From positions 1-54,471 of IMG/VR virus record IMGVR_UViG_3300029319_007471: 54,471 bases of DNA; one strand, 5' to 3'. Numbering within the stretch: the first letter of the stretch is position 1; each line of letters starts with the position of its first letter. The position numbers and the translations under genes are program-made. A model generated the notes under the pieces. That model did no database searches and was not told the origin of the DNA. It saw only the letters and a list, made by a program, of their open reading frames with translations. Below are positions 48,055 through 53,992 of the stretch, piece after piece. The DNA comes from a virus (lineage: Duplodnaviria; Caudoviricetes).

Positions 48055-49248
48055 TTATCTACCTACTTCTCCCAAGTATTTAGCTTTTGTCTCATCCCAA
48101 GTAGTGTTCAATACATCAGCGTAAAACAACTTCTCCGGCTTAATCTTATTTTCATCCAATAACTTTGAGTATCTTCTAATAGCCTTTGGTTTCCACCAAT
48201 TGTTGATGTAATCCATATCCTCAACATATTTCTTTTTCATAACCAAATCTTTCTCATCAATTTCATTTCTCAAAAATAGTTTACCATTCTCATACATATC
48301 GGCATAATAAATACCCCTTTGAAATCCATGCTCAAAGTCTTTTAACTTTAATCCCAACTCATCATAAATCATTTTGATTATCTTTTGCTTAACGCCTGTA
48401 ACTGGCCCTGCCACACCACTCTTTTGTGTTGTCTCTCTGAGATATCTCTCTGATTTATTTTCCTTAACCCAATCATGCCAAACATCATATGATGAATCAT
48501 CTGGCTTCAAACTTATTCTACCTGATGATTCTCCTAAGGTTTTCCAATGTGGGATTCCATTGTACATCGAATGTATGCCATACAATGATGTGGTGGATAA
48601 TCCAACTAAGGTTTGATTATACAACTTTTTCCACATATCTCTAACTACCGAAGAGGTGACCATAGCTGCTACCAACTTACCACCTAAAAAATTAAAACCT
48701 AAAGGTTGGACACAACAAATGGTTGTGCCGATTGACGTATGATTCAACTTACCATCTTTGAATTTATTATCTTTTGTCCATCCTATAAATGAATCTCTGG
48801 CTCCTAATGAGGTAACATCGGAACCTAAACAGATTAAACCTAAAACCTTATTTGTATTCTTATCCTTAACATAGAACTTAATGTTTCTACCTGGATTTGC
48901 TGTGAACTCCATAGTGTGGATTAATCTTCTGAGTAATGTCCAATTCTCACTATCTTTAGGATTACCCTGCTCCACAGTTTCTACAATTGGATTTAAAGAC
49001 TCTATCTCACTAATTGTTTGTTCTTTGTTATAGATATCTTTAGGCACCCAAATAGATTTTTCTAATCCATCAAATTTAGATGCCTTTTGTAACATTGAAT
49101 AAGAGTCTTTGTTAAACTCTTCCCATTTTTTATATAATGTAATTTCCTGCACCGACATAGACTTTAGGAAATTTAAATTTTCTATAAACTTTTTTTTCTC
49201 CGATTCGTAATCGAATTTTGGTTCATCAAAAAAATTATCAAACGACAT
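48055..49248 (-). CDS. DUF4338 / DruA-like protein
   Basis: PGRNIKFYVKD, LGLICLGSD...RDSFIGW, QPLGFNFLGGKLVA, TTSLYG...SMYN. Confidence 0.75.
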   Translation of the reverse strand: MSFDNFFDEPKFDYESEKKKFIENLNFLKSMSVQEITLYKKWEEFNKDSYSMLQKASKFDGLEKSIWVPKDIYNKEQTISEIESLNPIVETVEQGNPKDSENWTLLRRLIHTMEFTANPGRNIKFYVKDKNTNKVLGLICLGSDVTSLGARDSFIGWTKDNKFKDGKLNHTSIGTTICCVQPLGFNFLGGKLVAAMVTSSVVRDMWKKLYNQTLVGLSTTSLYGIHSMYNGIPHWKTLGESSGRISLKPDDSSYDVWHDWVKENKSERYLRETTQKSGVAGPVTGVKQKIIKMIYDELGLKLKDFEHGFQRGIYYADMYENGKLFLRNEIDEKDLVMKKKYVEDMDYINNWWKPKAIRRYSKLLDENKIKPEKLFYADVLNTTWDETKAKYLGEVGR

Positions 49249-49801: not shown

Positions 49802-49830
49802 AATATACGACTTTTATTTGGTAAAGTCAA
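49802..49830 (-). promoter_or_regulatory. Sigma70-type promoter
   Basis: A7-GGC-TTGACT-17 nt-TATATT. Confidence 0.7.
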
Positions 49831-49841
49831 GCCTTTTTTTG

Positions 49842-50243
49842 TGGAGCTGGTGGGATTCGAACCCACGTCCAGTTTGCCCGTGATAAATAGTCATTCACAA
49901 CTTAGTTAGGTTCCAAATTCGGTAGTCACCTACAACCCACCACGGTCAGTTTACAGATTGACAACTGGTAGGGTTTATTGTCTCCCTACATTGACGATCC
50001 TGTCTAACTTATTTTATGACCGAGTGTTAGACAACTCAGTATCCTATGCAGCGTATGCGTAGGATGGTTGAAAGTCAGAAACAAAATTATCAAATCCCAT
50101 TTCCGAATTGGCTAGATGCCAATCAATTTCCAACCCTTCAAGCGATTTATCGCCATTTGAGTTATGAGTCTTTTTTCGCGAGACCTACTCAATCTCTGTT
50201 GCACTATCTTATCAAAAAACACCTGTCGATACCGTTCAGCCCC
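49842..50243 (-). ncRNA. ssrA: tmRNA (402 nt); predicted tag frame 50154-50044
   Basis: 5' GGGGCTG...TCGAC and 3' GTGGG-TTCGAAT-CCCAC-CAGCTCC-A, with a G3-U pair; PK1 GAGA/TCTC plus TGAGT/ACTCA; tag ends YAYAA* inside an ATCCTA...TAGGAT hairpin; CCA not fully encoded. Confidence 0.95.
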
Positions 50244-50391
50244 AATCATCATCATCATATTCACCCAAATTCATCTCTTCGTCTCGGATTATACTTTTTC
50301 TTAATTCATCAATGACACGTATAACCAAATCCCAATCTTTCATTTCTTCCGCTTGAGTCAATAATTCAATTAAATTTTCTATCTGTGACAT
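50236..50391 (-). CDS. 51-aa acidic protein overlapping the tmRNA 5' end (not in the ORF track)
   Basis: GAGG RBS; MSQIENLIELLTQAEEMKDWDLVIRVIDELRKSIIRDEEMNLGEYDDDDWG*; its TGA lies in the tmRNA GGGGCTGA. Confidence 0.7.
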   Translation of the reverse strand: MSQIENLIELLTQAEEMKDWDLVIRVIDELRKSIIRDEEMNLGEYDDDDWG

Positions 50392-50442
50392 AATTTTTTT
50401 CCTCATATTGGATAACTATAAGAAAATAAAAAAATTAGTATA

Positions 50443-51378
50443 TTAATATTTTTTTATAAAATCAATCTTACTATGAAATTCTTCAATATTTTTAGCACCA
50501 ACAAACATAAGGGATGATTTTAATGATTCCGATATATCATTTATTGTTGCCTGTAAATCTATTTTTATCGACGAATTTTTTGTATTGTTTTTAATATAAG
50601 AGTCCATAATAAACGAATCGGCACCAGCACCAAGTCCTTTACATACATCACCAATATTGTTAGTATCAACATAACCGATAACAGGCACGTTAAAGGTATC
50701 AGCAACATTAGCACAATTAATGATAGTAGAAATTTCGGGAACATCATAACCTGTTCTATTAGCTTTTTGATGTTTATATCCACTCCCACACCCGATTGTA
50801 ATCGCGTCAGCTCCTGACTCACATAAGTATCGTACCGCTTCTTCTGTATTAACTGAGCCCGCAATAACTTCAACTCTCGATAACTCTTTTTTGATTTTTT
50901 CAACTGCATCTCCTACTAATTTATTATATCCGTGTGGACTATCAATAAATATGACGTTACAACCGTTTCTATATAACTCAGCACTCCTCTCAATAAAGTC
51001 ATCGGATAACTTTATGCTAGCGCACTTAGGTAATTTATTTAGAAAATTTATCGTATCGTCCAAATCTTTTTTTATTTCGTCTTTTATATTGTCATTTTTT
51101 TGTAACTCATAAATGTAAAGACTTTTGGTGTCATGCCAACTATGATATAAAAGTTTCATTTGATGTGATTGTTTTTTAATTGACATATTACTATTCAACA
51201 CACCAACACCCAAACAATCACTCATTTTTTTTGCCATCTCTAAATCGGTATTGTGTTGGGATAAAACAAATGGTATTGCTATTTTAGTTTTTTTTGTAAA
51301 TTTAGTTATTAAATTTATATCTGATAAATCTATTTTACTAAATTTGGAAACAATAGATGAGTTATTGAATGATAACAA
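50443..51378 (-). CDS. Degenerate IMP dehydrogenase / GMP reductase-like protein
   Basis: IFIDSPHG, VIAGSVNTEEAV, GADAITIG, KGLGAGAD, LKSSLMFVGA; catalytic GSICTTR loop reads GYKHQKA; probable TTG start near 51378. Confidence 0.75.
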   Translation of the reverse strand: MLSFNNSSIVSKFSKIDLSDINLITKFTKKTKIAIPFVLSQHNTDLEMAKKMSDCLGVGVLNSNMSIKKQSHQMKLLYHSWHDTKSLYIYELQKNDNIKDEIKKDLDDTINFLNKLPKCASIKLSDDFIERSAELYRNGCNVIFIDSPHGYNKLVGDAVEKIKKELSRVEVIAGSVNTEEAVRYLCESGADAITIGCGSGYKHQKANRTGYDVPEISTIINCANVADTFNVPVIGYVDTNNIGDVCKGLGAGADSFIMDSYIKNNTKNSSIKIDLQATINDISESLKSSLMFVGAKNIEEFHSKIDFIKKY

Positions 51379-52228: not shown

Positions 52229-52819
52229 TTACATACAACATTTTTTATGTTTTTTCCCACTACCACAATGACACGGGTCATTTCTACCTACTTTGTTGTT
52301 ATTAACTATCGTAGTTATAAATTTTCTATCATTTATTGTTACACCATTCAAATGGTCAATCTCATGCTGAACACAAATCGACTCTAATAATCTCAATTGA
52401 GTATCTTGTTTTTTAGATTCTACTTGCTCTTCCCAACTACCCTTACCCTCAATAATATGTTCAACACCGCTGAAATACCAATGTGATTCCGATTGTTCGG
52501 TTTTAATTACAACATCTCTAAATCTTTTAGTATTTACACCTTTACCTTTAAAAGATAAACAACCCTCATAATAAGGTATCTCAACCTCTTGTGAAATGTA
52601 CTCAGGATTTATAAGAACTAATGGTTCTCTTACATTAACAACAGCAACTTGTGCATCTATACCGACCTGATTAGCAGCTAAACCAATACCATCCTTACGT
52701 TGATTAAGTATTTCAAATAATTCTGTTGCTATCTTCATACCCTCTTCTACAGATACCTTTTTTAGAGGTTTGTTAATTAAAGGATTGTGTTCAGTTAGAC
52801 AATTGATTACTTTTCTCAT
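52229..52819 (-). CDS. def: Peptide deformylase with C-terminal SEC-C motif
   Basis: GIGLAANQVG, EGCLS, QHEIDHLNG; tail KVGRNDPCHCGSGKKHKKCC. Confidence 0.93.
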   Translation of the reverse strand: MRKVINCLTEHNPLINKPLKKVSVEEGMKIATELFEILNQRKDGIGLAANQVGIDAQVAVVNVREPLVLINPEYISQEVEIPYYEGCLSFKGKGVNTKRFRDVVIKTEQSESHWYFSGVEHIIEGKGSWEEQVESKKQDTQLRLLESICVQHEIDHLNGVTINDRKFITTIVNNNKVGRNDPCHCGSGKKHKKCCM

Positions 52820-52835
52820 AACACCTCAAATTTTG

Positions 52836-52909
52836 AGTGCAGGACTGGATTCGAACCAGCGAACAATGGTTTTGCAAACCACCCCATTAGACCACTCTGG
52901 CACCTGCAC
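52836..52909 (-). tRNA. tRNA-Cys(GCA)
   Basis: Acceptor GTGCAGG/CCTGCAC with U discriminator; anticodon arm GTGGT-TTGCAAA-ACCAT; T arm GCTGG-TTCGAAT-CCAGT; CCA not encoded. Confidence 0.95.
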
Positions 52910-53153
52910 GGCCCTCTGCATCTGCCACTCTTTGTTTAAACTTTCTGTTTTGCACCTCTAATATATGTTTACAATATTTAATTTTATGTCTCCTACGAAA
53001 CTTAAATGCTGGACAATCACACGCCCACTCAATACGAGATGGGTCAAATTGAATATCATAATCCTTTCCATCTATCTTATGATGTTCCCAACCATACTCA
53101 TCAATCAAAACACCATCAAACAACTCTATAATTTTATCAATAAGTTCAGACAT
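52887..53153 (-). CDS. SWIM zinc-finger protein overlapping the tRNA-Cys 5' end
   Basis: WACDCPAF...CKHI. Confidence 0.75.
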   Translation of the reverse strand: MSELIDKIIELFDGVLIDEYGWEHHKIDGKDYDIQFDPSRIEWACDCPAFKFRRRHKIKYCKHILEVQNRKFKQRVADAEGRAGARVV

Positions 53154-53578: not shown

Positions 53579-53992
53579 TTATTTTAAATAATTTGGGCCT
53601 GTCCACTCATACCAACTGGTATCTTTATAAAAAACATTACCTCTGGCATGCTTAGCTGGTGCATTCCAACTAGCAGCTTTGAATGTATCACCCCTATTAT
53701 AGAGAATATTTTTATGACTATCACTATCAATAGCGACGAATCCCCAAACTCTCGTACCTTCCAAAACCTTTATAAATTTCCTACCATACTTAAAACTTAT
53801 GTCAAATTTATCAACATTAAATCCACCCCATTTTTTATACTTAAGAATAATATTCTCTCTTAATCTTTCTAATGCGATATCCATATTTCTTTCTATATTG
53901 TTAGAATCATATTTAGATTCATATGTTTTTTTTATAACTGGTTTTTCTTTTGTTGATTTCGGAGTTACTCCGTTGATAAATTTAAAACTCAT
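53579..53992 (-). CDS. Phage hypothetical protein
   Basis: GRKFIKV...VWGFV...GDTFKAASWNAPAKHARGN, a motif recognised from large-phage early genes. Confidence 0.65.
   Translation of the reverse strand: MSFKFINGVTPKSTKEKPVIKKTYESKYDSNNIERNMDIALERLRENIILKYKKWGGFNVDKFDISFKYGRKFIKVLEGTRVWGFVAIDSDSHKNILYNRGDTFKAASWNAPAKHARGNVFYKDTSWYEWTGPNYLK

Follow-up and report, generated by a model that had tools for sequence, protein, structure and literature searches.

We describe a gene for a small acidic protein that runs into the 5' end of a transfer-messenger RNA (tmRNA) gene of an uncultured virus and has its stop codon there. The stretch of DNA analysed (the window) is the complete IMG/VR viral record IMGVR_UViG_3300029319_007471, 54,471 bases long, which represents about 20% of the genome by the CheckV estimate; its long open reading frames (ORFs) are on the minus strand throughout. 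Homologues of the small protein precede the tmRNA in most related loci. About one third of those adjacent to the tmRNA share the overlap, and most of the others end at a stop codon of their own. In the reading that we prefer, with a probability of roughly 0.55, the ORF is situated within the tmRNA's 5' leader, the overlap results from genome compaction, and the stop-less message that tmRNA maturation would leave behind is a tolerated by-product and not a conserved device. The elements concerned are the following.

50236..50391, minus strand: gene for the 51-amino acid (aa) acidic protein (MSQIEN...YDDDDWG), stop codon included; based on homologues, substitution ratios and a structure model
49842..50243, minus strand: one-piece tmRNA, 402 nucleotides (nt) to the discriminator A; based on the Rfam RF00023 match (82.5 bits), the family alignment and the family profile (362.8 bits)
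50236..50243, minus strand: 8 nt common to the ORF (xGG GGC TGA) and tmRNA nt 1-8; based on the sequence, the Rfam match and the fold
50400..50404, minus strand: Shine-Dalgarno-like GAGGA, 9 nt before the ATG at 50391
50044..50154, minus strand: tag reading frame GGC GAT AAA ... GCT GCA TAG, encoding GDKSLEGLEIDWHLANSEMGFDNFVSDFQPSYAYAA followed by a stop; an open, conserved frame
50413..50422, minus strand: CTTATAGTTA, the window's version of a conserved upstream motif of the ATACTTAT / ACTATTTAT type, 21 nt before the ATG

The minus strand reads ...GAT GAT GAT GAT TGG GGC TGA at the end of the ORF (TGG, 50244-50242; GGC, 50241-50239; TGA, 50238-50236), and the stop codon TGA is at the same time nt 6-8 of the tmRNA. 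A preliminary description of this DNA had reported the GAT TGG GGC TGA end, the 8-nt overlap and the location of the stop codon within the tmRNA 5' end; the sequence, the Rfam placement and the acceptor stem all agree with it. The tmRNA exhibits a match to Rfam RF00023 as a one-piece tmRNA at 50243..49839 on the minus strand (82.5 bits against a gathering score of 47, E-value = 1.4e-30, model positions 1-374), and the tmRNA of a close relative (locus L002) likewise exceeds the Rfam threshold with 82.3 bits. Its 5' end at G50243 is fixed by the acceptor stem, in which GGGGCUG (50243..50237) pairs with CAGCUCC (49849..49843), including a G3.U pair, followed by the discriminator A49842. The minimum-energy fold of a precursor comprising the ORF and the tmRNA also contains this stem. 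The tRNA-Ala-like traits of a tmRNA are all present, namely the G3.U acceptor stem, the T-arm GGGUUCGAAUCCC and the discriminator A, and all are conserved in the family alignment. The bases following A49842 are CAA, so that the CCA end is incompletely encoded.

ARAGORN did not call this tmRNA in the window, where a tRNA-Cys was its sole call; phage tmRNA surveys and annotation based on ARAGORN would overlook the family. A DNA search of the ORF and tmRNA region against 50,697 GenBank phage records returned no match. SmpB (PF01668) was not found in the 54-kb record, i.e. in about 20% of the genome, and the tmRNA would presumably use the SmpB of the host. One related locus (L009) exhibits a tmRNA-like 3' end (GTGGGTTCGAATCCCACCAGCTCCA) about 40 nt before the tmRNA 5' end on the minus strand of the locus, with the new 5' end 20 nt later; this may be a tandem or rearranged tmRNA.

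The tag frame comprises 36 codons (50154..50047) and a TAG stop (50046..50044). The encoded peptide has the N-terminal GDKSLEGLEIDWHLA and the C-terminal ...QPSYAYAA, thus ending in the hydrophobic, Ala-rich degron followed by a stop that is expected of a tmRNA. The exact resume codon is the one that we infer here; the Rfam alignment would place it one base later. In 53 of the 65 distinct tmRNAs of the family the tag is 34-49 aa long, carries the N-terminal block G[DE]xSLxGLxIDWHLA and ends in QP[ST]YAYA(A). Five others exhibit a 9-aa tag (GNTANFAYA and similar), and our search pattern found no tag frame in the remaining seven. Six residues (L5, G7, L8, D11, W12 and P30) are invariant in the 46 distinct long tags. 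Among 185,579 species genomes of bacteria and archaea, a nucleotide pattern for the IDWHLA region occurs at five places, and just two of these are tmRNAs. Both lie on short contigs of metagenome-assembled genomes (736 and 2,584 bases), and one of these (L141) also has the small ORF. With this one pattern no tmRNA was found on a long bacterial contig among the same genomes. Judged by this single pattern, the long tag seems to have originated in phages. A dependence of the small protein on the long tag was considered and rejected: members with the short tag (L023, L087, L044) also have the ORF. A structure prediction of the small protein together with the tag peptide gave no answer, with a score of 0.00, and speaks neither for nor against binding.

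The ORF has the properties of a genuine gene. The ORF listing gives a 56-aa form from an upstream ATG. In L002 a 1-nt deletion shifts that ATG out of frame, the 11 close homologues (the window's own ORF excluded) all begin with MSQ or MSE, the twelfth (P0001) being the window's 56-aa form itself, and GAGGA stands 9 nt before the ATG at 50391; the 51-aa form is therefore the correct one. A GGAG or GAGG sequence precedes the ATG in most relatives as well. The 51-aa ORF of the preliminary description is thus upheld. The ratio of nonsynonymous to synonymous substitution rates (dN/dS) was computed for 54 pairs from seven subfamilies and is between 0.01 and 0.41 in 48 of the 49 pairs in which it is defined. 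The exception, the window against L002, gives 1.61 at a dS of 0.04, with too few changes to count. Fifty-five distinct proteins align without frame breaks, L11 and W20 being invariant and A14 nearly so. The AlphaFold model computed with this alignment exhibits a helical hairpin, formed by helices at residues 3-16 and 20-40, with a predicted local distance difference test score of 86-94 over residues 1-30, and a disordered acidic tail at the C-terminus. An untranslated ORF, which the preliminary description named as an outcome that would undo its proposal, is not what this pattern of purifying selection suggests. That the frame is open by chance and untranslated is highly improbable in our view: it is short, AT-rich and without a known family, as such a frame would be, but the low dN/dS values, the 55 homologues with their two invariant residues, the conserved Shine-Dalgarno-like sequence and the confident hairpin model all argue for translation.

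The homologues share a signature of about 45-55 aa, M-x-[LI]-x-x-[IV]..L..A.....[DN]W..[IV].E followed by an acidic tail that includes aromatic residues. The window protein heads the family alignment, matches the hidden Markov model (HMM) of the family with an E-value of 2.5e-19, and is encoded on the same strand as the tmRNA that it abuts. A profile search of 1.84 billion cluster representatives returned 193 relatives at E-value<=0.001, and most of the 146 newly listed relatives in this library are 45-60 aa long. No Pfam family was assigned to the window protein, the commonest weak matches across the 55 members being RIC1 (18) and DeaD_dimer (11). No significant match was found in PHROGs (best E-value = 0.0066) or by sequence search of the PDB (best E-value = 0.018), Foldseek gave no PDB match at E-value<=0.001, the ESM Atlas held no named cluster for the protein, and a tblastn search of the 51-aa protein against the same 50,697 GenBank phage records gave no match at E-value<=1. 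T4 gp33 was considered as an identity, because in the report on pelagimyophage Melnitz ssrA shares an operon with the late-transcription coactivator gene and immediately precedes it (PMC9004378); gp33 was absent from every search list. By sequence comparison this is a new family of small proteins, so far found only in uncultured marine phages.

The linkage between the small ORF and the tmRNA was examined in related loci. Searches of IMG/VR with a pattern for the tmRNA 5' part gave 20 stretches, those with a pattern for the 3' region at least 119, and a profile built from 14 tmRNAs of the family matched 125 of 135 sources. After three duplicate loci and partial hits had been dropped, 99 loci with a tmRNA 5' end remained; all locus counts given here are among the IMG/VR matches listed. 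The first HMM of the small protein identified a homologue ending at the tmRNA in 72 of the 99 loci. A larger profile gave 83 ORF hits: 73 are immediately adjacent to the tmRNA, and the other 10, on the same strand, are 78-950 nt upstream, separated from it by a cold-shock-like gene, a tRNA or another ORF. The intervening gene is a tRNA in L031, L058 and L100 (seen directly to abut the tmRNA 5' end in the first two) and a cold-shock-like gene in L064, L055 and L073; the small ORF stays upstream in all six. TGA is found at nt 6-8 in 56 of the 99 tmRNAs, so any ORF entering in this frame would stop there, and the overlap alone is not improbable. What goes beyond chance, by these comparisons, is that 83 of the 99 loci have a member of one and the same protein family upstream of the tmRNA.

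The 72 adjacent ORFs end in different ways. Twenty-four stop at the tmRNA UGA (nt 6-8) and end in ..WG, and a truncated locus (L050), ending in ..EEEWG, is additionally of this overlap type. Forty-six have a TAA or TAG of their own, the first base of which is 6-13 nt before tmRNA nt 1, leaving a gap of 3 nt (5 loci), 4 nt (16), 5 nt (11), 6 nt (10), 7 nt (3) or 10 nt (1). The stop codon of the last two begins 57 nt upstream of the tmRNA. With identical sequences removed, 18 overlap forms stand against 39 own-stop forms. A similar mixture is found in the protein library, of which 146 of the 150 listed representatives were examined: 16 end in WG, three more WG forms are read through because the gene caller took TGA as Trp, eight extend 10-25 codons into the tmRNA, 58 have their own stop after an acidic end, and 61 are long, truncated or unclassifiable. 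The nt 6-8 stop is thus used in 19 representatives overall. Four predicted genes (P0018, P0020, P0043 and P0111) lack the nt 6-8 stop or no longer have one of their own; they extend 18-25 codons into the tmRNA and end in ..DRCYLTI.CSR[VD].

Closely related sister forms differ in their ends, ..EDW or ..NLW before an own stop against ..EDWG or ..NLWG in the overlap. For instance, ..NPFD.Y..EDW with its stop, followed by (a)atat/GGGG (the slash marks the tmRNA border), has a counterpart ending in ..EYQSEEDWG, and ..DEDNLW has a counterpart ending in ..DEENLWG. A short indel between the final TGG codon and the T/GG at the border distinguishes such forms. On a quick tree of 65 distinct tmRNA rows, the distribution of overlap and own stop needs eight changes. 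A poorly resolved protein tree, computed without the last eight residues (55 rows, 43 columns), needs four changes of the overlap state. The overlap thus likely arose repeatedly, although the number of its origins is uncertain.

The tight spacing is not confined to the small ORF. Other genes preceding the tmRNA also end 3-7 nt before it, such as those for a basic protein (L108, L126 and L072; L096, L039 and L026) and for a cold-shock-like protein (L064, L073 and L055). In the window itself, a second ORF runs into a second tRNA-like gene.

52887..53153, minus strand: 88-aa Cys/His-rich ORF, with its TAA at nt 21-23 of the tRNA-Cys (23-nt overlap)
52835..52909, minus strand: tRNA-Cys (GCA), identified by ARAGORN and Rfam

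The 88-aa ORF (CxC...CxH) exhibits no Pfam match. Its overlap with the tRNA-Cys is kept in 11 of the 12 related loci that bear the tRNA, the ORF of the twelfth stopping 5 nt before it; in five relatives without the tRNA-Cys, the counterpart of the ORF has its own stop. The two overlaps and the tight spacing of other genes together point to a habit of this lineage of running genes into tRNA-like genes.

The position of the ORF relative to a putative promoter suggests that it is transcribed with the tmRNA. The core CTTATAGT of the upstream motif is at 50422..50415 on the minus strand, 23 nt before the ATG, and many members of the family exhibit a motif (G/T/A)ATACTTAT(C/A)T or ACTATTTATAT 24-38 nt before the ATG of the small ORF. 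Of 59 distinct upstream regions, 21 contain TACTTA; judged from other parts of these loci, 1.1 would be expected. The motif set as a whole lies at -60..-11 relative to the ATG in 40 of 59 distinct loci, and within the last 60 nt before the tmRNA in only four. Among 13 distinct loci without the ORF, three (L013, L127 and L005) have the motif 9-13 nt before tmRNA nt 1. The ORF would thus sit between the promoter and the tmRNA, that is, in the tmRNA leader. As a general promoter word TTATAGTTA is not enriched in the window (37 matches, 47 expected). A scan for sigma-70-like promoters matched nothing inside the window's ORF, and the idea of a tmRNA promoter at that place, which the preliminary description regarded as fatal to its proposal, thus finds no counterpart in the scan. 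Two of the matches elsewhere flank the region.

50437..50465, minus strand: sigma-70-like match TTGATT-17-TATACT, at the end of an IMPDH-like gene upstream of the ORF; 9 of 12 consensus positions
49802..49830, minus strand: sigma-70-like promoter TTGACT-17-TATATT, after the tmRNA and before the next gene (start 49775); 10 of 12 consensus positions

Overall the scan is not enriched over shuffled sequences (eight matches, 9.5 expected), and the match at 50437..50465 is to be taken as a lead only. The promoter at 49802-49830 and one before the gene starting at 53992 have in common an A-rich stretch followed by GCTTGAC(A/T), a spacer of 17-18 nt and TATATT; these two near-consensus sigma-70-type promoters are probably early phage promoters. 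Twenty metatranscriptome runs hold small shares of the window. Contigs from four of them all fall within 49834..50232, a range confined to the tmRNA and the 8 bases that follow it; among them are a 151-nt piece at 50078-50228, which shows a single difference, and an adapter-flanked piece at 50099-50232.

We envisage the locus as a two-gene unit that would comprise a promoter, the small acidic protein gene and the tmRNA. In this phage the gene, without a stop of its own, ends at the UGA that most tmRNAs of the family carry at nt 6-8. The overlap form probably arose through a small deletion of the kind that separates the sister forms; its cost would be a single added glycine, and several clades have retained it. 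The acceptor stem could not form until the 3' end of the tmRNA, about 400 nt later, has been transcribed. Ribosomes loading early would meanwhile terminate at the UGA of the still uncut precursor, having made the complete 51-aa protein. According to PMC3985003, RNase P produces the 5' end of tmRNA, and from this known maturation cleavage is expected between U50244 and G50243. Once the stem has formed, RNase P would cut before G50243, freeing the tmRNA and a leader that ends in ...GAU GAU U. The cut would break the Trp codon and remove the stop from the leader message. Ribosomes on the cut leader would stall at its end and be rescued through trans-translation by the host or the phage tmRNA, with tagging of the product and faster decay of the message. 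The predicted rescue product consists of residues 1-49, an Ala and the 36-aa tag ending in YAYAA, and should be degraded. We read the stop-less message as a by-product because two thirds of the relatives keep a stop of their own and unrelated genes are packed equally tightly.

Several observations weigh against this reading. The overlap is stable within clades at dS values from 0.4 to more than 2, which also fits a selected role, and in 70 of the 72 adjacent ORFs the distance from the stop to the cleavage site is no more than 10 nt, which could reflect a constraint and not mere compaction. On the protein tree, the well-supported branches alone force only one change of the overlap state. The promoter-like motif, which is unvalidated, is missing from 19 of the 59 distinct loci, and AT-rich acidic codons (TAT GAT ...) near the ORF end resemble -10 hexamers, so that an internal promoter is possible. 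The metatranscriptome contigs match the tmRNA, and none matches the ORF or the gene downstream of the tmRNA; such contigs reveal neither RNA ends nor levels, their gaps prove nothing, and they speak neither for nor against co-transcription or processing.

The preliminary description had proposed a possible programmed non-stop mRNA. Part of this stands: provided that both genes are transcribed together, RNase P cannot cut at G1 without removing the stop codon. A programmed message, in the manner of arfA, would imply in addition that the loss of the stop was selected. The protein would be tagged and destroyed while trans-translation capacity is ample and would accumulate when it is short, either untagged or from unprocessed precursor, with feedback on the tmRNA that is made from the same precursor. 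This logic would hold for the window under co-transcription; it fits the persistence of the overlap through whole clades with saturated dS, and even own-stop messages would be left nearly without a 3' tail after cleavage. However, a device of the arfA type should have its stop removed by processing in all or nearly all homologues, and only the 24 overlap forms use the tmRNA UGA. The preliminary description itself proposed checking whether related loci keep an ORF with its stop in the acceptor stem, and would have abandoned the idea if the overlap were not conserved. The overlap does recur in those 24 ORFs and is kept within whole clades, but 46 end at a TAA or TAG ahead of the cleavage site. 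Not being conserved across the relatives, the overlap does not bear out the claim of a programmed device. In another 10 loci a tRNA or a complete gene separates the ORF from the tmRNA, the overlap state flips between close relatives, a similar overlap joins an unrelated ORF to the tRNA-Cys, and unrelated genes abut the tmRNA as closely. The C-terminal Trp kept in the own-stop relatives (..EDW, ..NLW) would moreover be lost from a cleaved message. We regard a selected loss of the stop as unlikely.

The uniform position of the stop may instead be what was selected, in overlap and own-stop forms alike: a ribosome terminating on or within 10 nt of the RNase P site would cover the 5' strand of the acceptor stem and so time or gate the folding and maturation of the tmRNA. 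In the 70 ORFs mentioned above the stop is positioned from -13 to +8 relative to tmRNA nt 1, U is found at position -1 in 90 of the 99 loci, and the acceptor stem needs a 3' end that is made some 400 nt later, all of which would suit such coupling. Yet unrelated upstream genes exhibit the same spacing of 3-7 nt, as simple compaction predicts, and the ORF is separated from the tmRNA by other genes in 10 loci and absent from 13 distinct ones; coupling of this kind seems improbable to us. Separate transcription of the two genes, from a tmRNA promoter in the 3' part of the ORF and with an independent ORF message, would yield little or no stop-less message. Short leaders are common for bacterial ssrA genes, and strings such as TAT-GAT or TAT-AAT, resembling -10 hexamers, occur 13-23 nt before G1 in several members. 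Against it stand the sigma-70-like scan, without a match inside the ORF, and the conserved motif, found far more often upstream of the ORF (40 of 59 loci) than in the last 60 nt before the tmRNA (4 of 59). Read-through from the ORF promoter would in any case be cleaved. We think it quite unlikely that the two genes are transcribed apart, and retain compaction with a tolerated by-product as our reading.

The phage has its nearest cultured relative, by its family B DNA polymerase, in Microcystis phage Mel-JY01 (47% identity), followed by T4-like cyanophages and pelagiphage HTVC008M (about 33-35% identity). Mel-JY01 exhibits no tmRNA above threshold. The loci described here define a large family of uncultured marine phages that, judged by the DNA polymerase, is distantly T4-like. 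In the window, a peptide deformylase with a C-terminal SEC-C zinc motif is encoded at 52229-52819 on the minus strand, starting 16 nt after the tRNA-Cys. In L019, L080 and L125, a gene ending in ..CSCGSEKKYKKCCM immediately precedes the small ORF. These positions suggest a loose translation-related module of deformylase, tRNA, small ORF and tmRNA. Two genes downstream of the tmRNA, a 397-aa protein (48055-49248, minus strand) matches the Pfam family DruA, a Druantia defence protein (E-value = 3.9e-24), and by this match is a defence-system-like gene inside the phage.

Comparable arrangements are known from other systems. In E. coli, the arfA message loses its stop codon by RNase III cleavage at a hairpin. 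The resulting non-stop mRNA yields a product regulated by trans-translation, according to PMC10107115. The likeness to the phage locus is in the endonucleolytic loss of the stop, which makes the message a tmRNA substrate, so that the level of the product can report tmRNA activity. In the phage, by contrast, the enzyme would be RNase P and its target the 5' end of the tmRNA itself; the stop-less form is found in only about a third of the relatives, and the phage protein has no known role in ribosome rescue. In mitochondrial tRNA punctuation, cleavage by RNase P and RNase Z at a tRNA sets the 3' end of an mRNA and may leave an incomplete stop codon. There, too, coding regions abut or overlap tRNA genes, but the stop is completed by polyadenylation. 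Bacteria and phages are not known to make such a repair, and a message of theirs that ends without a stop is subject to trans-translation. Ordinary overlaps between phage genes are similar in that a few bases are shared, a stop is lost and the next one in frame is used, with no need of a regulatory meaning; they differ in that the downstream partner here is a structured RNA excised from the transcript, which brings about the loss of the stop.

Phage tmRNAs have been reported from huge phages (PMC7162821) and, as a two-piece ssrA, from pelagimyophages including Melnitz (PMC9004378). Both reports used ARAGORN, the marine cases are two-piece, and the proposed roles are the upkeep of the hijacked translation machinery or selective tagging (PMC7162821, PMC9004378). 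The family described here has in common with them a phage-borne ssrA within an array of genes on the same strand. It differs in its one-piece tmRNA, its phage-specific tag of 34-49 aa, the dedicated small gene upstream, and in being missed by ARAGORN. A full-text literature search, judged at the level of abstracts, returned no ORF with its stop inside a tmRNA and no small protein gene tied to a phage tmRNA. The overlap of genes with tRNAs and the presence of tmRNAs in phages were already known; the small-protein family tied to the tmRNA and the long phage-specific tag are new.

The present family offers three experimental handles on the role of phage tmRNAs: the long tag, the acidic protein encoded in the leader, and the arrangement, in about a third of its members, that would strip a stop codon. 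In a further, doubtful extension, the precursor would give rise both to the tmRNA with its 36-aa tag and to a stop-less partner message acting as an ArfA-like sensor, with the level of the partner protein set by the load on trans-translation, in a lineage that would routinely make non-stop messages at tRNA-like genes, the tRNA-Cys included, with the tmRNA partly servicing them. If the stop-less message matters, the small gene would be the second natural gene after arfA to be regulated as a tmRNA substrate, and the first whose substrate is made by RNase P. If it does not, the family shows how freely protein genes may run into tRNA-like genes.

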